A stretch of DNA of 64,000 nucleotides from Ignavibacteriales bacterium (GTDB lineage: Bacteria; Bacteroidota; Ignavibacteria; UBA10030), in the NCBI GenBank assembly GCA_016192345.1, contig JACPUH010000021.1, positions 58,523 to 122,522 of the forward strand, given 5' to 3'. The number at the start of each line of letters is the position of its first letter. The first letter of the stretch is position 1. The notes below the pieces were generated by a model. That model made no database searches and had not been told where the DNA came from. It worked only from the letters and a program-made list of their open reading frames with translations. A program made the position numbers and the translations under genes. Below, piece by piece: positions 18,466 through 41,338 of this stretch.

Positions 18466-19746
18466 TTACAGCCGGATCTCCCAATAGATCGATCTCTTTA
18501 ATTCCTCCACCCATTCCGCGTTCAACCGGTTTTTCTTAACGAACAGGGCCATCTGTTCGACGCGTTTGTAATCATCCTGCAAGTTCATGGCATGGGCCGG
18601 CACCCGCCGGCGGACATATACAATCTGGTAACCGTAAGAGGCACGAACGGGGACGCGGTGCGCCTCAGTGATTTCCCCCTCCTTCAGGTTCCTGACAACA
18701 CTGGCAAACGCCTCTTCAAGCTGGTCTGCAGCAATGCGACCAAGGTCGCCGCCGACCGATTTTGTTTCCTCATCTTCCGAGTACTTTCGTGCAAGCTCGG
18801 CAAAGGATTCCCCCTTCAGCACCCGTTCCCGCAGTGTCCGGAGTTGTTGGACCGCCGCTGAGTCGCTTTCCGGTCCCTGCTGGATGCGCAGGAGAATGTG
18901 CCGTGAATGCACCGTTTCTCCCCTTCGCTCGATCAATTGGACGATATGATACCCGAATTCGGTTTTGAAGACATTGGAGATTTCCTTCTCCTTCAGAGAA
19001 AAGACCGCCTCCTCAAACTCAGGCACGAACACAACGCCCCGTTTTGCCCACCCGAGATCGCCTCCGCCCGGCGCGCTTCCGTCCTGAGAATATCGCTTTG
19101 CAAAATCCCCAAAATCACCCCCGGCGACAATGCTGTCGCGAATCGCGGCCAGCCGTTGGCGCGTCAGTTCTTCATGAGTGGTGTCAGGCCTCGGCTTCAC
19201 AAAGATATGGCTGAGTTCCAATTCCTCCGGGACGGACGGCAGGCTGTCCTTGTAGGCTTCATAGAATTCCTCGACTTCCCTCCGGGTGACCTGCATGGAT
19301 GCTTCCCGCTGCTGGCGGATACGCTGGATGAGCAATTGCTTTCGCATTTCGGGGCGGTATTCCCGCTTCAGACGGCTGACCGATTTTCCGTAGAGTTCCT
19401 CGACGCGCTGTTCGGAGCCTGCCTGTCGAATGATGTTCTGAAACTGTTGTTCCAGGGTGCGCGTCACTTCCTCTTCAGTCACCGAGACGCTGTCTAAAAT
19501 CGCCTGTGCGAGGATCAGTTTCTCCGAAACCATCGATTCCAAAACCTGTTTCTTCAATTGCGGGTCGTTGGCATTGAGCCGATTTTGCATCGCGATCATA
19601 GTCAACCGCTCTGCCACATCGCTCTCCGTGATGATCTCCTTGTCGACCACCGCGGCAACTTTATCGATCAGCACCTGAGCATACGTTCCCTGGACGCCTG
19701 CGAGCACGACAACCATGAAACCGGCAACAACGACTCTGCAAATCAT
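18466..19746 (-). CDS. SurA-like periplasmic chaperone / peptidyl-prolyl isomerase with two parvulin (PpiC) domains
   Basis: 426 aa with a signal peptide. Two PpiC signatures are present: GGDLGWAKRGVVFVPEFEEAVF...GYHIVQL and GGDLGRIAADQLEEAFASVV...YGYQIVYV. Confidence 0.8.
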   Translation of the reverse strand: MICRVVVAGFMVVVLAGVQGTYAQVLIDKVAAVVDKEIITESDVAERLTMIAMQNRLNANDPQLKKQVLESMVSEKLILAQAILDSVSVTEEEVTRTLEQQFQNIIRQAGSEQRVEELYGKSVSRLKREYRPEMRKQLLIQRIRQQREASMQVTRREVEEFYEAYKDSLPSVPEELELSHIFVKPRPDTTHEELTRQRLAAIRDSIVAGGDFGDFAKRYSQDGSAPGGGDLGWAKRGVVFVPEFEEAVFSLKEKEISNVFKTEFGYHIVQLIERRGETVHSRHILLRIQQGPESDSAAVQQLRTLRERVLKGESFAELARKYSEDEETKSVGGDLGRIAADQLEEAFASVVRNLKEGEITEAHRVPVRASYGYQIVYVRRRVPAHAMNLQDDYKRVEQMALFVKKNRLNAEWVEELKRSIYWEIRL

Positions 19747-31128: not shown

Positions 31129-32019
31129 CTACTTCTTTCTTATAAGCCCCCTCAACACCCTCATATTCTCCACATCCTCCTTCATCTCCGGTCCCTTGGG
31201 TGTTTCCAGAATCTTGGGGATGTTGCTGAAGCGCGGGTCATTCATCAAAAAAGAGAATCCTTGAATCCCAATTTTCCCTTTCCCGATATGCTCATGCCTG
31301 TCAACGCGTGAACCGAGTTCCCGCTTCGAATCATTGACGTGAAACGCAACAAGCCGGTCCAATCCCACGATTGTGTCAAATTCCCTGAACGTTTCTTCGT
31401 ACCCCCGCTCCGTCGAAAGATCGTACCCGGCCGCGAACACATGGCATGTATCCAAGCAGACCGCCATCCTCTCCCGTTCTTCAACCAGGTCGATAATCTT
31501 CCTCAAATGCTCGAAGCGGTAACCGATGGCCGTCCCCTGCCCCGCCGTTGCCTCGATGACGCTTCGCACGCCGTATCCCGGGGTGCGTTGGTGGATGACG
31601 TTGAGCGACTCGGCAATACGTTTGATTCCCTCTGCTTCCCCTGCTCCCATGTGGGCACCGGGATGAAAGTTCAGGTACTGTACACCGAGCGCTTCACATC
31701 GGTCGAACTCATCCTTCAAGGCTTCCCTCGACTTCTTCAGAATTTCCTTGTCCACCGCGCAGAGGTTGATCAAATAGGTATCGTGGACCACCACCGGATG
31801 AATCCTTGATTCCCGAAGCAGCTTTTTGTAGGTTGACACATCCTCATCGGTCAGCGGTTTCCCTTTCCATTGATTGTTATTTTTGACAAACATCTGCATC
31901 GTGGTGCATCCGATCCGTTGTCCACGCTCGACGGCGGTGGCGACACCTCCAGCAATCGACATATGGGCGCCGAGGAGGAGGGTGCTGTTGTTCAAAGGAG
32001 ACATTGCACGCTTTTTCAT
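31129..32019 (-). CDS. nfo: endonuclease IV (apurinic/apyrimidinic endonuclease)
   Basis: LLLGAHMSIAGGVATAVERGQRIGCTTMQMFVKNNNQWKG matches the Nfo N-terminus, and the conserved His/Glu/Asp metal ligands occur through the TIM barrel. The true start may be the internal Met 15 nt downstream. Confidence 0.85.
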   Translation of the reverse strand: MKKRAMSPLNNSTLLLGAHMSIAGGVATAVERGQRIGCTTMQMFVKNNNQWKGKPLTDEDVSTYKKLLRESRIHPVVVHDTYLINLCAVDKEILKKSREALKDEFDRCEALGVQYLNFHPGAHMGAGEAEGIKRIAESLNVIHQRTPGYGVRSVIEATAGQGTAIGYRFEHLRKIIDLVEERERMAVCLDTCHVFAAGYDLSTERGYEETFREFDTIVGLDRLVAFHVNDSKRELGSRVDRHEHIGKGKIGIQGFSFLMNDPRFSNIPKILETPKGPEMKEDVENMRVLRGLIRKK

Positions 32020-33379: not shown

Positions 33380-35719
33380 TCACGGCTCTCCGACGGATGC
33401 AAAGAGCGGGATCTGGAACGTCTGAACGCCAACCCTGCCCCGATCCTGCGGGACGACACGGCGACCAGCCTTTCGCGGCGCCCCCACCCCCAGTTCCACT
33501 TTTAACCTCCCCACATCGTATCCCAGGGGAAAGAGAAGCGTCTCCACTGCTTTCAGGGCGAACTCCGTGTACTGTTCGATATCGTACCCGTCCTCGAACG
33601 CGTAGAGGGCCAGCGGTTTCGCTTTCTCCGGTTTCCTTGTTCCCGACTGGTCCAGGATGATGAACTCGATCATCTCCCCCGGGGCGAGCGACACCCCCAT
33701 CGCTTTGACCATCTTCGAGACCACGGCGCTGATGCTGTTGTTCTCGTACTCATCCGGTTCCTTGCTGATATGCCGTCGCAACACCAGCTCCATCGGGTTT
33801 GCCTTGCCGCTGCGCAGGACGGCGATATGGTTACGGGCGATCATAAGCAACTCGGGGAGCATGGCCTGCACCTCCGCCACATTCTGCGCGGCGGCCATGT
33901 GGTCCAGCATGGCCTGTTGCATGGTTTTGATGAACTGCGGCACGTCGCGGCGGCGCGATTCGATGCCGCGGATCTTGATGTCGTCATGGCGATACCAACC
34001 GACGTACCGGTTTGCCGTGGTAATCACCGGGTCCTGTTTCGAGGCAGGGAACAGGATCCAGCGATAGATCCCTTCCAACGAAATATCGATGCCAGCTTGC
34101 TTTCCGATCTCCGTCGCCAGTTCCTCGTAATCATGTTCCGTCGCCCCCGATTTCTTCAACCACACACAGTCGATGATCGCATGGAGCATCCGGAACCCGC
34201 CCCGCTCGGCCACCTCCTTCGCCCGGAGGATGGCATCGCGGGAGAAGGCATTCACGGCCTCGTGCGCCTCGATCTTCCCGAAGCGCGCGTTCTTATAGCC
34301 GAGATACCCGAAGCAGCTGACGAGCATCCACTTGAGGGCGTTCTGGCGGTGGTCATATTTCCGGAACTCAGCTTCGTTCTTTCCCCGGTTCAGCTTTTTG
34401 AGCCGTTTATAGTGGGACCGACGTTCCACCACGGCGCGCAGGGTCGCCGGGATCACCCCCTCGCGCTTTTCGCAGATCGTATAGCCCAATTCCGGGACGC
34501 GTTCGTTTCTGCAACAGCGGCAATTGACCGTCTCCGGCGAGACATTCCGCTCCACCATGATCGTCGGGTACATCGAGACAAAATCGAGTTCGGCAACCTC
34601 TTCATGATATCCAAGGGGCGGGTTGTAGATGAGTCCGCCCCGATCGGCCAGCATCAGCGTTGATGCCGGCTTGAACTCCTCCGGCTCACGCTTCTTTGCC
34701 GGGATCAGCACATTGTTGCGGTACGCCCACGACAGTTGCATGGAAGACATGGAGGTCCCGATGCTCGCACGCGCCTGGCGCTGGACCGGTATCTGCGTCA
34801 GCCGCGTCAGTTCGAACACCCCCTCCAGGTCCGCCTCACCCAGCGTGAAGGAATTTTTCTCGTCCAGGTGCCACCTCCCGGCCAGTTCGAAGGCTCCATC
34901 CTTGTGCACAATCTTGCCGTACTGGAAGAAGCTTGATTCCCGCGTGGTGGCGTATCCGGCGTGCGGATCACGGTTCAAGAGCAAAGGTACATTGAGCTGT
35001 TGGGCCAGACCGGTGATGTGTGGCAACAGGATCGAATCGCCGTACTCTGTGATCAGGACATCAGGGTCGCTCCGGTGCAGGTGCCAGTTAAGCGTCTCCA
35101 GGACCTCGCGCGGGTTGTGCTGTTCCAACGCGTACGTGCGCCCGTCATAACTCACCTCCAGTTGTACGTACTTCCGGTACTTCGGAGGGACGAACGAGTT
35201 CGCATCCCGCAGCCACAGAATGGACAGGGGCGGGAGGGAATAGTCCATGGCTTCACGCGCATCGTTGATCGTCCACGTGAGAAGATGGTTTTGTTCATCG
35301 ATGACGTACTCCCCGCGCGCAAGCGGGAACAGTCCCGTTTCATAGAGAAAGAGCTGCGGAACCAGGACATCCGAGTTGAAGAATGCGAAGTGGGGAAAGA
35401 ACCGCTCGTAGTACCAGACGACCTTCTTGAACTGGAGCGGGTTGTGGACAAAGACCTGCAGCACATCCCATGATTCGCCGGAGTAGATTTCCGTGTGCGT
35501 CGTCCGGTTAAAGGAGACCCGCGCGGGACACTGTGCGCCCAGCAGGAGCGCCCGTTTTGCATCGAAGTCGCTCAGGTGAAGAAAAAACGACGGGGTAAAC
35601 GGAGCGAGACAGCGATAGCGCCGGCCCGTTGTACTGAGAAGCCAGACGACAACCCCATCGGCTGACGGATAGACGTCGAAGAGATACCCATCAATGGTTT
35701 CTGATGTCCCGGGATTCAT
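33380..35719 (-). CDS. family-B DNA polymerase of archaeal type, exonuclease motifs lost and motif C divergent
   Basis: Track ORF trimmed to MNPGTSETIDGYLFDVYPSADGVVVWLL, which aligns with the PolB N-terminus (MILDVDYITEEGKPVIRLF). Motif A is intact (LDFVSMYPTIMVERNVSPETV) and motif B is KWMLVSCFGYLGYKN. Motif C reads MLHAIIDCVWL where YGDTDS is expected. Exo I is LSILWLRDANSF (no DxE) and Exo II is EYGDSILLPHI where YNGDSFDFPYL is expected. Confidence 0.8.
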   Translation of the reverse strand: MNPGTSETIDGYLFDVYPSADGVVVWLLSTTGRRYRCLAPFTPSFFLHLSDFDAKRALLLGAQCPARVSFNRTTHTEIYSGESWDVLQVFVHNPLQFKKVVWYYERFFPHFAFFNSDVLVPQLFLYETGLFPLARGEYVIDEQNHLLTWTINDAREAMDYSLPPLSILWLRDANSFVPPKYRKYVQLEVSYDGRTYALEQHNPREVLETLNWHLHRSDPDVLITEYGDSILLPHITGLAQQLNVPLLLNRDPHAGYATTRESSFFQYGKIVHKDGAFELAGRWHLDEKNSFTLGEADLEGVFELTRLTQIPVQRQARASIGTSMSSMQLSWAYRNNVLIPAKKREPEEFKPASTLMLADRGGLIYNPPLGYHEEVAELDFVSMYPTIMVERNVSPETVNCRCCRNERVPELGYTICEKREGVIPATLRAVVERRSHYKRLKKLNRGKNEAEFRKYDHRQNALKWMLVSCFGYLGYKNARFGKIEAHEAVNAFSRDAILRAKEVAERGGFRMLHAIIDCVWLKKSGATEHDYEELATEIGKQAGIDISLEGIYRWILFPASKQDPVITTANRYVGWYRHDDIKIRGIESRRRDVPQFIKTMQQAMLDHMAAAQNVAEVQAMLPELLMIARNHIAVLRSGKANPMELVLRRHISKEPDEYENNSISAVVSKMVKAMGVSLAPGEMIEFIILDQSGTRKPEKAKPLALYAFEDGYDIEQYTEFALKAVETLLFPLGYDVGRLKVELGVGAPRKAGRRVVPQDRGRVGVQTFQIPLFASVGEP

Positions 35720-35799
35720 GGGAGGATGCTCATGCTTGCTCTGTCTGTTCGGGAAGGATACGGGAATGGAAACGGAACAATCCAAAGATGCCCGTCACG

Positions 35800-36069
35800 T
35801 TACACGCGGTACACTTTTTCCTCCAGCCGTGCAAGGCGTTGTTTCAACTCGCGCATGACCCTCCCTTGCTCGACGATAATCGACATCATGATGCTTTCGA
35901 ACGGGATGGTCCGCATGGCATAAAAATTGGCCGCCAGTTGCCGCCGCGCGGAGCGAAAGACCTCATCGAAGAGTTCCTGGTCTTCCTTGCGGAGTCCCTG
36001 CCGGTACTTCGACCAGCTGACGATCTCGCTGTCGATGATGTTCGTGAAGGTCGGTACGGTACGTCCCAT
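35800..36069 (-). CDS. small hypothetical protein with C-terminal coiled-coil
   Basis: About 89 aa (MGRTVPTFTNIIDSEIVSWSKYRQGL...MRELKQRLARLEEKVYRV). A strong SD, GGAGGAG, sits 7 nt upstream of the ATG. Its 5' part overlaps the 3' tail of the upstream ORF in another frame. Confidence 0.5.
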   Translation of the reverse strand: MGRTVPTFTNIIDSEIVSWSKYRQGLRKEDQELFDEVFRSARRQLAANFYAMRTIPFESIMMSIIVEQGRVMRELKQRLARLEEKVYRV

Positions 36070-36790
36070 AACGGTCTCCTCCTTTCGCCGGGGGAACCTC
36101 ATTTCCGCTCCGGTGGATGATTGGTGTGCTGAGTTCCTCCTGCTCCAGGATCAATCGGGATACTTCCGGCCTGACATCCAGCCGGTAGACCCGGTCTGCA
36201 CGGGCCTTGACGGTTGTGAACAGGATGTTTCGCTCCTCCGGCAAAACCTGTCGGTCCGTGCATGCCAGGAGGAGGGAAACCCCGGCGCGCTTCAACTCAT
36301 GCAGCGTCGCCAGCACGCGCACCAGAATCTGTCGTACTTCACGGAACGGGGCCTGCTCGTCGTAGAACGTATCGAGCAAGCCGAGGATCAAGACGGTGTT
36401 GGCCTGCTGTTTCCGGCAAACCTCCGGCAACCGGTTCACGATGGTCTGTTCCATCTGGTAGCAGGTAAAGCTCCGTGAAACGAAAATACGACGCAGGAAA
36501 TCGTCGGGGTTGCGTTTCCCGTACTGTGCGAACCGGATGACCGCGTGAGCGTTGAACCGGTTCCCGCCGTCAGCCACCACGACATGGCCCCCTTCCGCCA
36601 GCATCGCGGAGGCAATGTTCATGGAGAGATCAAATACGGGCCGGTCGCCGTACAACAGGTACACCTTGCCGGGAGGCCGGGAAAACCGTTGCACCAGCTC
36701 CTCGGCCTGCAGGACGGGTCTTGCAAGAGAGGAGTGCGGCGCGGGGGGGGGCGGATATCGCCCGTGGGCTCCATGGCCTCCCATGCTCAT
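35963..36790 (-). CDS. RecA-fold (ImuA/SulA-like) protein with degenerate Walker A
   Basis: The track ORF extends to 37015, but its first 76 codons overlap the DUF72 gene. I prefer the Met at 36790, which overlaps the DUF72 stop (ATGA). The core GKVYLLYGDRPVFDLSMNIASAMLAEGGHVVVADGGNRFNAHAVIRFAQ ... TVLILGLLD follows the RecA/KaiC/ImuA strand-loop-helix pattern without GKT/S. The last ~35 aa are low-complexity and overlap the small ORF, so a frameshift or an earlier true stop is possible. Confidence 0.5.
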   Translation of the reverse strand: MSMGGHGAHGRYPPPPAPHSSLARPVLQAEELVQRFSRPPGKVYLLYGDRPVFDLSMNIASAMLAEGGHVVVADGGNRFNAHAVIRFAQYGKRNPDDFLRRIFVSRSFTCYQMEQTIVNRLPEVCRKQQANTVLILGLLDTFYDEQAPFREVRQILVRVLATLHELKRAGVSLLLACTDRQVLPEERNILFTTVKARADRVYRLDVRPEVSRLILEQEELSTPIIHRSGNEVPPAKGGDRYGTYRTDLHEHHRQRDRQLVEVPAGTPQGRPGTLR

Positions 36791-37704
36791 CGTTCCTCCG
36801 GATGCGGGGAAAACAACGGATGAAGGATATTCACCGGCGTACTGATCGGCTGGAGGACGGGAAACGCCTTCACGAGACGATCCGGCACCAGCACCGGATG
36901 CCGCGACCGCAGCAGGTGCCGCAACTGGAATCCGTTTATGAAGGAACAGGCTCCTCCATCGTTGTTGAAGCTCACATGCACGATTCCGGATTGCTCCGCC
37001 CGCTTCAAACGCCATGCGAGATCCTGGAGCTCACGGTCGTTATAGCAATAGTCATACCGGTATCCCCGCGTGGGGTCCCACCATGCCGCGGCATTCCTCC
37101 CCATCAAACGAAAATAGGAAACGCCATTCCACGCGGCATCGGTGAGCGGCATAGCGCGTCCCACTACGGGAACATCGATATTGACCAAATGGAATTTATT
37201 CTCCTGGAAAAAGTTGTACATCATCGGACTGTTCCATGAATTATGCCTCACCTCAACGAACAACCGGTACGGTTGGAAAGCACGCGCGAGTTCCATAAGA
37301 TAGAGGCGCCGTTCCCGGATATTGGTGAACGAGTACGGGAACTGCATCAGGAGGCCCCCCAGCCGGTTGGCCGCCGCAAGAGGTTCCAGAAGTCTGTGCG
37401 TTGCAAGGACATCCCCCTGGTCAGCCGTGCCCGTATGGGTGAACCCGCGGAACAATTTCACCGAGGAGAAAAGAAAGTGCTTGTTGGCGGCAACATCCCG
37501 CAGCCACCGGCGGGCATGGATCGGCGTCAACGCCGAACTGTAGAATGACGAGTGAATTTCCACACTATCAAAAAACTGGCTGTAATACTCCAGTTTCCGG
37601 AACCCCCGCTTTGTCCCCGGGGGATAAAATACCCGGTCGAACGGCTCCAGGTCCCATCCCCCCATCCCGATAAAGATCTTCGAACGATCGACATGCATGG
37701 ACAC
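36787..37704 (-). CDS. DUF72 (YecE/UPF0759) family protein
   Basis: 305 aa. IFIGMGGWDLEPFDRVFYPPGTKRGFRKLEYYSQFFDSVEIHSSFYS matches the DUF72 N-terminal signature. GGAGGG lies upstream of the ATG. Confidence 0.75.
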   Translation of the reverse strand: MSMHVDRSKIFIGMGGWDLEPFDRVFYPPGTKRGFRKLEYYSQFFDSVEIHSSFYSSALTPIHARRWLRDVAANKHFLFSSVKLFRGFTHTGTADQGDVLATHRLLEPLAAANRLGGLLMQFPYSFTNIRERRLYLMELARAFQPYRLFVEVRHNSWNSPMMYNFFQENKFHLVNIDVPVVGRAMPLTDAAWNGVSYFRLMGRNAAAWWDPTRGYRYDYCYNDRELQDLAWRLKRAEQSGIVHVSFNNDGGACSFINGFQLRHLLRSRHPVLVPDRLVKAFPVLQPISTPVNILHPLFSPHPEER

Positions 37705-37854
37705 CCTCCTTTAAAAAAGGCGTCATCGTTCGACCTCGCTCACGATGACATGATTTTGTATTGCTCGAGAAGCTGAACATAGAACATCACTCAGCTCCCG
37801 GTGACCACTTGACACCAACACGAAAATTGTCTACATTGGCCTCGTCAAGGATGC

Positions 37855-37898
37855 GACATATTTGTCGCTTTGTCAAGAGAAAAAATGACAAAAATGTC
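37855..37898. promoter_or_regulatory. pair of GACA-N4-TGTC inverted repeats upstream of the LexA-like gene (candidate operator)
   Basis: gacatatttgtc at 37855-37866 and gacaaaaatgtc at 37887-37898. Both are 12-nt sites, 32 bp apart centre to centre, and 34-77 nt upstream of the ATG at 37932. Confidence 0.35.
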
Positions 37899-37931
37899 TA
37901 TGCAGAAAAACCCCCTACAGGAGCGCACGGT

Positions 37932-38582
37932 ATGAAACAATCCATTGCACAACGCATCCGCATTGCGAGAACGGAGAAGGAGATCGAACAGGGGACGCTT
38001 GCCGCAAAACTTGACGTTGCGCGACGCACCGTCCAACGCTGGGAAAAGGGGGAACAGGTGCCCGACAGTAATTACCTGATGCGCATCGCGAAAATCACCG
38101 GCGTGACACCCCATTGGTTGCTGACCGGAGACGGGGATATGTACGCCAAACCATCGGAAGCGGCCATTCTTCCGCTCGCCACCCAACGCTATAAAAAAGT
38201 CGAGCTCGTCAGGCTTCCCCTCCTCTCCTCCGTCCCCGGCGGGGCGCCAAGCCTCATCTTCCATCCCGACTATGTCGAGAAGTATATCACCGTGGACGAT
38301 ATGCGGGACCCGAACGCGTTCGCGCTGGAGGTTAAGGGGAACAGCATGGCACCGCGCATCGAGGATGGCGACATCATCGTGGTGAGCCCCCGGATCGAGG
38401 CGCGGAGCGGCGATATCTGCGTGGTGCGGATCAACGAAGAGGATACCGTCAAGAAGATCAAGATCGAGGAGCGGTACCTCCACCTTATCCCTCTCAACCC
38501 GGAGTACGAGCCGATGGTGGTACAGAAAAAAGACGTGGCGTTCATGTGGCGGGTGGTGAAGGTCATTAAAGAGATCGGATAG
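37932..38582 (+). CDS. LexA-like transcriptional repressor: XRE-type HTH plus S24 peptidase domain
   Basis: Trimmed to MKQSIAQRIRIARTEKEIEQGTLAAKLDVARRTVQRWEKG (HTH_XRE). The C-terminal S24 domain has GNSMAP (Ser nucleophile) and a downstream VKKIKIE Lys. It is divergent from the DUF72/ImuA-like/PolB operon. Confidence 0.8.
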   Translation: MKQSIAQRIRIARTEKEIEQGTLAAKLDVARRTVQRWEKGEQVPDSNYLMRIAKITGVTPHWLLTGDGDMYAKPSEAAILPLATQRYKKVELVRLPLLSSVPGGAPSLIFHPDYVEKYITVDDMRDPNAFALEVKGNSMAPRIEDGDIIVVSPRIEARSGDICVVRINEEDTVKKIKIEERYLHLIPLNPEYEPMVVQKKDVAFMWRVVKVIKEIG

Positions 38583-40753: not shown

Positions 40754-41338
40754 TCAGGAATTACGTGCTTCGAGCTTCTGGATCTCGTCCCGCAACTTGG
40801 CCGCTTTCTCGTATTCTTCCCTGGCAATTGCCTCCAGAAGCTGCTGCTGCAATTGCTCGAGCTTTGTGAGTTTCGGCTTTGGTTTATCTTTGTCTGCTTC
40901 GGGAGCTGTTCCGACAGTGGGAATTTTGTCGGACTCCTCGTTCTCGGGGACGAACGCCGCTTCATCCATCACCTTATCAGAGACGAAGATGGGAACGCCG
41001 AACCGGACAGCCAACGCGATGGCATCGCTTGGACGCGAATCAATTTCCTGAGTTTCGAGGCTCAGTTTTGCAAAAAACGTTCCGTCCCGTAACTCGTTGA
41101 TAAAAACATCATTGAGGATACCCCCCAGCGAGTCCAGCACATTTTTCAATAAGTCATGCGTGAGTGGGCGTGGCGGTTTAATTCCTTCCATTTCAAGGGC
41201 GATGGACTGGGCCTCAAATGCTCCAATGATAATCGGCAAGCGCCGGGCCCCGTTCACCTCTTTTAAAATCAACGCATAGGCTCCACCGCTTGACGGACTG
41301 GTGGACAACCCCAGAATATCTACCTGAATCCTCTCCAC
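40754..41338 (-). CDS. bifunctional nuclease (BFN/DUF151) with C-terminal UVR domain
   Basis: 194 aa. The N-terminal DUF151 fold runs DILGLSTSPSSGGAYALILKEV...RPLTHDL. The C-terminus LEQLQQQLLEAIAREEYEKAAKLRDEIQKLE is a UvrB/UvrC-type UVR helix pair. Confidence 0.7.
   Translation of the reverse strand: MERIQVDILGLSTSPSSGGAYALILKEVNGARRLPIIIGAFEAQSIALEMEGIKPPRPLTHDLLKNVLDSLGGILNDVFINELRDGTFFAKLSLETQEIDSRPSDAIALAVRFGVPIFVSDKVMDEAAFVPENEESDKIPTVGTAPEADKDKPKPKLTKLEQLQQQLLEAIAREEYEKAAKLRDEIQKLEARNS

Follow-up and report, generated by a model that had tools for sequence, protein, structure and literature searches.

A PolB2 translesion-synthesis operon behind a DUF72 gene in an Ignavibacteriales genome, probably held off by a CI-type S24 repressor and induced by DNA damage

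A conserved operon encoding a B-family DNA polymerase (PolB2), a small alpha-helical protein of arCOG07300 and an inactivated RadA, accompanied in bacteria by lexA, was described by Makarova, Krupovic and Koonin in 2014 (PMC4104785). The two partners were renamed iRadA and PPB2 ("Partner of PolB2", arCOG07300) by Timinskas, Timinskas and Venclovas in 2025, who modelled a PolB2-iRadA-PPB2(x3) heteropentamer as the PolB2 "mutasome" (PMC11791011). According to the same study, bacteria use the sole gene order iRadA-PPB2-PolB2, which was traced to a single transfer from archaea, and DUF72, lexA and SRAP are enriched beside polB2 (PMC11791011). Dpo2 of Sulfolobus is damage-inducible, required for targeted mutagenesis, and an extender in translesion synthesis (TLS), and in Sulfolobales all three genes are induced together (as cited in PMC11791011 and PMC12926913). 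Here, a locus of this kind was analysed in a metagenome-assembled genome (MAG) of an Ignavibacteriales bacterium (GCA_016192345.1). The window, i.e., the whole stretch of DNA that was analysed, comprises 64,000 nucleotides (nt) of contig JACPUH010000021.1 (positions 58,523 to 122,522), and all coordinates below refer to it. We consider it highly probable that the locus at 33380-38582 is a bacterial PolB2 TLS operon (group 1a) that stands behind DUF72, is held off by a CI-type S24 repressor and is induced by DNA damage.

Four close-packed genes of the region lie on the minus strand, and a fifth diverges from them on the plus strand. The operon begins with the gene of a DUF72 protein (36787-37698, minus strand, 303 amino acids (aa), MBI3110575.1), which is followed on the same strand by iRadA (35963-36790, 275 aa, MBI3110574.1), PPB2 (35800-36069, 89 aa, starting with MGRT, MBI3110573.1), and PolB2 (33380-35719, 779 aa from the ATG at 35719, MBI3110572.1). 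The gene of an XRE(HTH_3)-S24 repressor lies on the plus strand (37932-38582, 216 aa, MBI3110576.1). All accessions were obtained as exact matches in a sequence look-up of the five window proteins, and they belong to a 138-kb contig of the Ignavibacteriales MAG. The original prediction, made from the letters of the DNA, had described a LexA-like XRE plus S24 repressor with GNSMAP divergent from a minus-strand operon, and the five genes were found in the order and orientation it gave; the ATGA overlap that it reported between DUF72 and the RecA-fold gene, in which the iRadA ATG overlaps the DUF72 stop, was likewise seen (36787-36790). Two of its coordinates were corrected: the intergenic region between DUF72 and the repressor gene spans 37699-37931 instead of 37705-37931, and the polymerase, previously taken as an 801-aa open reading frame (ORF) from a TTG at 35785, is assigned to the ATG at 35719. 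The overlap of iRadA with PPB2 and the loss of the first motif C Asp, both described below, were absent from the original prediction.

The cassette itself is already known and the present locus is individually catalogued. One row of Supplementary data file 1 of the 2025 study holds MBI3110572, MBI3110574, and MBI3110573 as PolB2, iRadA, and PPB2, with the group "1a (iRadA-PPB2-PolB2)", the neighbourhood "DUF72 iRadA PPB2 PolB2", the active-site region HAIIDCVWL, and the motif IID at 513 (PMC11791011). The PolB2 sequence printed in that supplement equals the window PolB2 over the stretch shown, and the PPB2 of the present operon is among the published oligomer models (PMC11791011, file 2). LexA was counted there as PF01726+PF00717 only, and none was flagged at the present locus (PMC11791011).

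PolB2 matched the Pfam family DNA_pol_B (1.4e-33) and, among NCBIfam models, the type-B models NF004418 (e-119) and NF004416 (e-115), followed by Pol I-type (e-50) and Pol II (e-15) models. Its nearest solved structures are Thermococcales PolB, with the alignment confined to residues 280-741; the N-terminal 280 residues are barely alignable to archaeal PolB. The Pfam scan returned no exonuclease-domain match, and alignment of the Exo II block to P. abyssi PolB (this exonuclease block only) placed YGDSILLPH of the window opposite YNGDNF(D/A)FPY, with the catalytic Asp replaced by Leu. The protein is hence a proofreading-dead B-family polymerase of the archaeal PolB2 group, and the earlier claim that its proofreading motifs are gone stands. 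In the alignment to the same P. abyssi enzyme, motif A retains its Asp and Tyr (ELDFVSMYP), motif B retains its Lys with the conserved Asn replaced, the Tyr of KxY is retained, and motif C reads IID in place of DTD, i.e., the first Asp is lost and the second kept. The motif C codons (I515-I516-D517; 34169-34177, minus strand) represent the PolB2-type substitute for the canonical DxD. Such substitutions led Makarova et al. to infer that PolB2 is inactive (PMC4104785), and in line with this original 2014 view the complex could act as a structural or regulatory component at stalled forks or origins instead of synthesising DNA; the replaced first Asp of motif C, the replaced Asn of motif B and the lost exonuclease site agree with it. 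We regard catalytic inactivity as improbable, given that Sulfolobus Dpo2 carries the same IID motif, is an active polymerase (as cited in PMC11791011 and PMC12926913) and is needed for damage-induced mutagenesis, that the window protein retains the Asp of motif A, the second Asp of motif C, the Lys of motif B and the Tyr of KxY, and that conservation of the palm and finger motifs reaches 90% or more over 52 PolB2 orthologues.

Two further segments of PolB2 bear on its predicted contacts. Residues 262-285 (ESSFFQYGKIVHKDGAFELAGRWH) form a highly conserved block in the region expected for the iRadA-binding loop. At the C-terminus, QIPLF (residues 769-773 of 779; codons at 33401-33415, minus strand) is a candidate beta-clamp-binding motif, so assigned because it resembles the consensus QL[SD]LF. 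QIPLF, QVPLF, QELPLF, and other Qxx[LD]LF-type motifs recur in the last ~20 residues of PolB2 at most related loci, and the rest of the C-terminal tail is unconserved among orthologues; from this pattern, QIPLF probably tethers the complex to the beta clamp.

For iRadA, matches to family models were weak (RadA, E = 0.008), and Pfam scans of iRadA and PPB2 at E-values of up to 10 gave no match (the library used was without a PF26485 model). An AlphaFold model built from a 22-sequence alignment showed a confident core at about residues 29-218 (predicted local distance difference test (pLDDT) 80-96), with residues 1-28 and the last ~57 residues predicted to be disordered (tail pLDDT below 50). 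When the model was searched against the PDB with Foldseek, the top 50 matches were all RadA, Rad51, Dmc1, or Rad51 paralogues (best E = 7.6e-11), so that the structural likeness of the RecA-fold ORF is to RadA/Rad51. The protein is without a GxxxxGK[ST]/GKT P-loop, the junction from strand 43-48 to helix 51-65 reading YGDRPVF, and the RadA N-terminal domain is missing. A RecA-fold protein with a degenerate P-loop, as originally proposed, was thus recovered, and the modelled structure identifies iRadA as an inactivated RadA/Rad51 homologue with a RecA-superfamily fold and a predicted dead ATPase site.

PPB2 was modelled by AlphaFold as three helices (8-23, 28-47, and 57-88), and its N-terminal arm MGRTVPTFT is invariant in 22 homologues; the 'MGRT' motif and the three-helix description have been published (PMC11791011). 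According to precomputed annotations, every PPB2 homologue has PF26485 (DUF8156). The 3' end of iRadA runs 107 nt into the PPB2 gene in another frame (35963-36069, minus strand), so the last ~35 codons of iRadA overlap the first ~35 of PPB2. Across 78 relatives, this junction varies from a 771-nt gap to the 107-nt overlap, and the iRadA stops fall at PPB2 codon pairs such as GAT-GAG. The overlap was considered as a functional fusion or frameshift site and rejected on account of the variable junction, the stops tracking PPB2 codons and the disordered tail; the variable junction and the predicted disorder of the overlapping tail indicate that the overlap is incidental. As a side observation, the iRadA tail looks conserved in homologues only because this stretch reads, out of frame, the invariant N-terminus of PPB2 together with its Shine-Dalgarno sequence.

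The DUF72 protein belongs to a TIM-barrel family (Pfam DUF72, 7e-42), with 1vpq and 1vpy/1ztv as solved relatives. DUF72 structures are related to UV-damage endonuclease (PMC11791011), and the protein probably processes damaged DNA.

Strong GGAGG-type ribosome-binding sites precede the DUF72, iRadA, PPB2, and repressor genes, e.g., GGAGGAA before iRadA and AAGGAGG 7 nt upstream of the PPB2 start. The PolB2 ATG, separated from PPB2 by a gap of 80 nt (35719-35800), has no recognisable Shine-Dalgarno sequence (the upstream region reads CATCCTCCC), and given this absence PolB2 translation may be lower or controlled differently. Terminator-like hairpins within the operon were not in excess (4 found vs 5.8 expected by chance).

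For the comparison with related genomes, 80 loci were retrieved from species-representative genomes by an iRadA profile, nearly all of them Ignavibacteria or "Bacteroidota" MAGs, and homologues of the five window proteins were mapped onto them. PPB2 followed iRadA in 59/59 loci with enough downstream sequence, and PolB2 in 52 of these 59. Upstream counts were made on the 66 loci with at least 2.5 kb of upstream sequence: DUF72 was found upstream of iRadA in 28, and an upstream gene with an S24 match to the window repressor in 41 (28 divergent, 13 on the operon strand). A full-length XRE-S24 orthologue was present in 33 loci, and a match to the S24 half only in 10. The arrangement recurs in 80 other genomes, and is therefore more than chance.

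The repressor combines an HTH_3 domain (Pfam, 1e-10) with a Peptidase_S24 domain (3e-26) and contains GNSMAP. Its longest ORF begins at 37761; the conserved start is the ATG at 37932. By Pfam, the N-terminus is of the HTH_3/Phage_CI_repr type and without PF01726, and the NCBIfam lexA model reached 67 bits against a cut-off of 111 while covering the S24 half only. In the PDB search, LexA, UmuD, and lambda CI were matched by the C-terminal half, and P22 C2 and the 434 repressor by the N-terminal half. Residues S138, K174, and G104 are invariant among repressor orthologues and position 103 is Gly in most and Ala in some, which marks (G/A)103-G104 as the candidate cleavage site and Ser138/Lys174 as the candidate dyad. 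Across Ignavibacteria, the repressor is 70-82% identical at a constant length of 214-218 aa, and iRadA is 45-50% identical; the conservation of the repressor is well above that of the cassette proteins. Judged by its domains, the repressor is a CI-type HTH_3+S24 protein, i.e., a LexA of apparently non-canonical architecture.

A palindrome was first spotted in the upstream regions of repressor genes, and the 80 loci (1.2 Mb) were then scanned for GACA-W4-TGTC. This yielded 97 sites, 95 of which directly precede either the operon or the repressor gene; the remaining 973 kb outside those upstream regions contained 2 sites. Operon-side sites precede DUF72 where it is present, else iRadA, and sites are usually paired at a distance of 31-33 nt. 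In the window, operator 1 (GACATATTTGTC, 37855-37866) is the core of CGACA-N4-TGTCG and lies within the spacer of the operon promoter, and operator 2 (GACAAAAATGTC, 37887-37898) lies just before the operon −35, at a distance of 32 nt from operator 1. The operon promoter is predicted to be of sigma-70 type (37848-37876, minus strand; −35 TTGACA at 37876-37871, 17-nt spacer, −10 CATCCT at 37853-37848). The predicted repressor promoter (37809-37837, plus strand; TTGACA, 17 nt, TACATT) has 10/12 consensus matches, operator 1 starts 18 nt downstream of its −10, and its equivalent in relatives is conserved as TTGACA-17-TATCTT. The two promoters face each other in the window, and both operators are in the early transcribed region of the repressor gene; in relatives without DUF72, the promoters stand back-to-back, each with its own operator. 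GACA-W4-TGTC occurs in the operon promoter of 57/78 related loci, and the complete operon-strand layout, i.e., operator 2, ~10 nt, TTGACA, operator 1 in the 17-nt spacer, and TATxxT, is present in 50/78. Placed in the spacer in this way, the putative operator would correspond to the classical promoter-occluding arrangement. A further perfect CGACA-N4-TGTCG in the window (19125-19138, spacer ATGC) was treated as a chance occurrence, being GC-rich, inside a 426-aa ORF (18466-19746, minus strand) and devoid of promoter-like context.

The motif is associated with the type of repressor. It was found in 32/33 loci with a full-length XRE-S24 orthologue and in 0/10 loci whose neighbour matches the S24 half only (the canonical-LexA type, with domains verified for L011, a true LexA_DNA_bind (PF01726)+S24 LexA). 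Among loci without a repressor gene within 10 kb, 25/35 carried the motif, which implies a factor acting in trans. In an Ignavibacterium contig (L081), no PolB2 genes are near the repressor gene, yet its own promoter contains the operators; from these sites, the repressor is predicted to be autoregulated through the same motif, including where it stands away from PolB2.

To follow the operator beyond these loci, metagenome contigs were scanned for its promoter-embedded form, TTGACA-N3-CGACA-W4-TGTCG, which matched at least 120 loci. Among the matches listed, 70 loci contained cassette genes and 57 were other sites. A second operator-like site, which was outside the query, lay 29-36 nt upstream in 25/57 of the latter (chance expectation ~0.3% by our own rough estimate), and a −10-like hexamer followed straight after the operator in 28/57. 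Behind the operator-promoter, again among the matches listed, an 80-109-aa Cys-rich protein without family match was encoded at 11 loci, and TcmP (TIGR04474, three-Cys-motif partner) followed by DUF5131 at 6 loci; PDDEXK_3 and 23S_rRNA_IVP genes also occurred in this position. On longer contigs, the Cys-rich gene is followed by a Y-family polymerase (IMS, IMS_C, IMS_HHH) and then by a divergent DUF72 protein (56 bits). Gene neighbourhood thus appears to link DUF72 with two families of translesion polymerase. Among the metagenome matches listed, the operator-promoter was not seen to precede a recA, uvr, or ssb gene. The gene content suggests an SOS-like regulon, with the repressor as a probable global regulator.

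The Cys-rich/DinB-like/DUF72 operons are those of L274, L287, L280, L216, L246, and L249, and the TcmP-DUF5131 contigs are L209, L248, L255, L304, L232, and L261; the DUF5131 gene of L248 has an apparent large insertion (593 aa), possibly an intein. The query was also matched on both strands by an AT-rich repeat, CAGTTGACA...CGACAATTTTGTCG...TGTCAACTG (GC 0.34-0.38), on contigs named Ga0210040_* (L227, L235, L236, L253, L273, L308, and L321). This palindromic element is not followed by any clear gene and seems to represent an unrelated family of repeats.

Combining these observations with the published models, the following mechanism is proposed, its biochemical steps being deduced from homologues and from comparative genomics. 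In undamaged cells, the repressor would occupy both GACA-W4-TGTC palindromes and keep the operon off. After DNA damage, filaments of RecA on single-stranded DNA would stimulate its self-cleavage at (G/A)103-G104 by Ser138/Lys174, and the operon as well as the repressor gene would be derepressed. PolB2, one iRadA and a PPB2 trimer would then assemble into the heteropentamer, in which, following the published models, iRadA would be held via a Rad51-oligomerisation-like motif of PolB2 and the MGRT arm of PPB2 would be inserted between PolB2 and iRadA, beside the DNA. The complex would be tethered to the beta clamp by the C-terminal QIPLF of PolB2, which by homology with Sulfolobus Dpo2 would act as an error-prone extender of mismatched or lesion-opposed primer ends, and DUF72 would be co-expressed from the same transcription unit. 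The analysis of operators and repressor suggests damage-inducible expression indirectly. The original prediction read the locus as a translesion or mutator module that is induced by damage and controlled by an S24 repressor, which is also the published interpretation of this gene set (PMC4104785, PMC11791011).

Several points weigh against this model. The operon −10 (CATCCT) is poor and weaker than in relatives, and the facing promoters imply long 5' leaders (~90 and ~140 nt). Most orthologues have Gly-Gly at the candidate cleavage site, where Ala-Gly would be classical. The published D(K/R) plus iRadA-binding motif could not be placed with certainty in PolB2, and the published hidden Markov model scan for clamp motifs gives no flag for MBI3110572 (PMC11791011). 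Furthermore, the literature searches found no experimental work on any bacterial PolB2 complex.

Some of these points would also fit an arrangement in which the XRE-S24 neighbour does not control the operon or does not respond to damage, another factor binding the palindromes or another signal being read. The operators at 25 loci without a repressor gene within 10 kb and the Gly-Gly cleavage site are compatible with this, as is the fact that repressor binding and cleavage rest on prediction. We nevertheless judge such a regulator unlikely, since repressor type and operator are near-perfectly associated (32/33 vs 0/10, see above), operators occupy the repressor's own promoter even away from PolB2, and the 4+4+4 palindrome fits a dimeric helix-turn-helix protein. 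In addition, the Ser/Lys dyad is invariant, and the operator-promoter is also found before TcmP-DUF5131 and before the operon of a Y-family polymerase, gene content typical of SOS.

A mobile origin was also weighed, in which the cassette would belong to a prophage, a casposon, or another mobile element and its regulator would be a phage lysogeny repressor. The HTH of the repressor is of the P22 C2/434/CI type, and B-family polymerases are frequent in mobile elements. Moreover, paired GACA-W4-TGTC sites ~32 nt apart were observed in more than 120 IMG/VR viral contigs (L086-L205; GC 0.34-0.65), a frequency far above chance by our own rough estimate, and in at least 5 of these contigs (L110, L147, L159, L160, and L191) a gene for a weak XRE/S24 homologue of the window repressor comes immediately downstream of the pair. 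The viral pairs suggest a broad phage-repressor family with the same half-site. Since the paired pattern retrieves unrelated viral elements of many GC contents, it was dropped as a regulon probe, and the promoter-embedded form was used instead. For the cassette itself, a mobile origin is very improbable: no integrase, terminal repeat, tRNA, phage structural gene, or Rfam match was found near it, base composition is even over the window with no compositional break, and the flanking genes are of the housekeeping kind (radical SAM, an AP_endonuc_2 protein (nfo-like), AnmK, MFS, TPR, BFN-UVR nuclease, and ETF). Throughout a whole bacterial lineage, the repressor keeps a constant length and an identity of 70-82%, and the viral contigs contain no cassette homologue beyond the weak S24 matches. 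A reading as a defence system was rejected as well, as PADLOC returned no defence system for the cassette, its only matches being an intein-type 'HEase' on the polymerase palm and generic HTH matches.

Finally, the proposal of the original prediction that this is an undescribed SOS cassette, in which an ImuA/SulA-like protein is combined with a B-family polymerase that locally replaces ImuB and DnaE2, has very little left in its favour: the layout does resemble lexA/imuA-imuB-dnaE2 (a divergent S24 repressor, an ATPase-less RecA-fold protein, then accessory and polymerase genes), but Pfam/NCBIfam scans gave no ImuA, SulA, IMS, or DnaE family match among the cassette proteins, 'ImuA/SulA-like' is not the right family name because the Foldseek top 50 are RadA/Rad51-type and both the P-loop and the RadA N-terminal domain are absent, the core genes form one fixed-order unit that was horizontally acquired from archaea in a single transfer (PMC11791011) rather than a replacement of Y-family and DnaE2 components, and the combination is not new, PolB2, PPB2, inactivated RadA, and lexA having been published in 2014, the enrichment of DUF72 in 2025, and the locus itself in a supplementary table.

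With a DNA-damage-induced PolB2 operon under a CI-type S24 repressor as the preferred reading, the locus now has a concrete regulatory model, comprising two operators, two predicted promoters, a candidate dyad and cleavage site, and a candidate clamp motif. Full-text literature searches on the operator motif or on the SOS response of Ignavibacteria returned nothing, and novelty may lie in the type of regulator, in its operator, and in the apparently wider regulon, as a variant of two known themes, namely non-canonical LexA proteins and SOS control over mutagenic polymerases. A broader proposal is offered tentatively, as one whose chances we put slightly below even: that the SOS response of Ignavibacteriota, and perhaps of neighbouring lineages, is governed by a CI-type HTH_3-S24 repressor, a further non-canonical LexA, with the operator (C)GACA-W4-TGTC(G) in the −35/−10 spacer, with the PolB2 operon as a core member and the Cys-protein-DinB-DUF72 and TcmP-DUF5131 operons as further members, that DUF72 is a recurrent partner of TLS polymerases from two different families, and that canonical LexA and this repressor swap, each with its own operator. 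If this were true, the concept of non-canonical LexA would reach beyond Bacteroidetes, the known SOS boxes would gain a new one, DUF72 would be functionally tied to translesion synthesis, and the swap of canonical LexA and XRE-S24 repressor over one conserved mutagenesis module would be a natural case of such an exchange.

The related loci showed additional variation in gene order. The S24-half-only gene stands on the operon strand, with GACA-W4-TGTC absent, in L005, L011, L015, L020, L027, L032, L035, L065, L069, and L073; L011 reads LexA, DUF3224, AHSA1, Glyoxalase, DUF72, SRAP (opposite strand), iRadA, PPB2, and PolB2. Rearranged operons were seen in L053, L054, L039, L064, and L021, and in some of these the repressor gene immediately precedes iRadA in the same orientation. 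In L054, the repressor and iRadA genes are preceded on their own strand by a DUF5131 gene (1035-1790), a DUF559 endonuclease-like gene separates iRadA from PPB2, and an M24 peptidase gene takes the place of PolB2 behind PPB2; in L021 a PolB2 gene is 8 kb off, with its own operator site. In L085 (2380-4742 of a 732-kb contig), SRAP (opposite strand), a Glyoxalase-family protein, and a Cdd1/HHH_5 protein lie between DUF72 and PPB2. Judging from the L085 layout, the PolB2 operon appears to tolerate the insertion of other damage-related genes.

Two genes within 3 kb of the cassette encode an AP_endonuc_2 protein (endonuclease IV-like, nfo-like; 31129-32019, minus strand) and a bifunctional-nuclease-domain protein with a UvrB/UvrC motif (40754-41338, minus strand). 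No operator was found upstream of either gene.

Compared with known systems, the locus resembles E. coli Pol II (PolB) as a B-family polymerase with SOS regulation (predicted here) and a C-terminal clamp-binding motif (a candidate here), whereas Pol II consists of one subunit, which proofreads actively and has the canonical DTD. With imuA-imuB-dnaE2 it shares the format of a LexA-type-regulated multi-gene mutagenesis module that includes a RecA-fold protein lacking recombinase activity; here, however, there is no ImuA family member, no ImuB, and no C-family DnaE2, and the origin is archaeal. The E. coli Pol V mutasome (UmuD'2C-RecA-ATP, under LexA) is likewise multisubunit, tightly repressed, and error-prone, and it also contains a RecA-family subunit along with a small accessory protein that forms oligomers; this architectural parallel to the PolB2 complex has been stressed previously (PMC11791011). 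Its catalytic subunit is of the Y-family instead of the B-family, PPB2 is unrelated to UmuD, and Pol V uses the RecA of the cell, whereas the PolB2 complex has a dedicated inactive RadA paralogue.

On the side of the regulator, the closest counterpart is the non-canonical LexA of Bacteroidetes (Sanchez-Osuna et al. 2021, PMC8565304), which also combines a PF01381 HTH with a PF00717 S24 domain, conserves the catalytic residues, is chromosomal, adjoins and probably represses an error-prone polymerase operon, and is probably autoregulated. That protein binds GGA-N5-TCC or CTAA-N5-TTAG (PMC8565304), in contrast to the GACA-W4-TGTC predicted here; the present repressor is from Ignavibacteriota, a phylum absent from PMC8565304, the likeness is one of architecture and not of direct homology comparison, and the polymerase is a B-family PolB2 complex. 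On the side of the operon, the published PolB2 mutasome is the same system: the three proteins, the bacterial gene order, IID, the dead exonuclease, the inactivated RadA, and the MGRT-armed PPB2 agree, as does a neighbourhood with DUF72 and an S24 repressor. It differs in that the repressor here is HTH_3+S24 instead of the PF01726+PF00717 LexA counted there, and the operator and promoter architecture as well as the candidate QIPLF are additions to what the published table holds.

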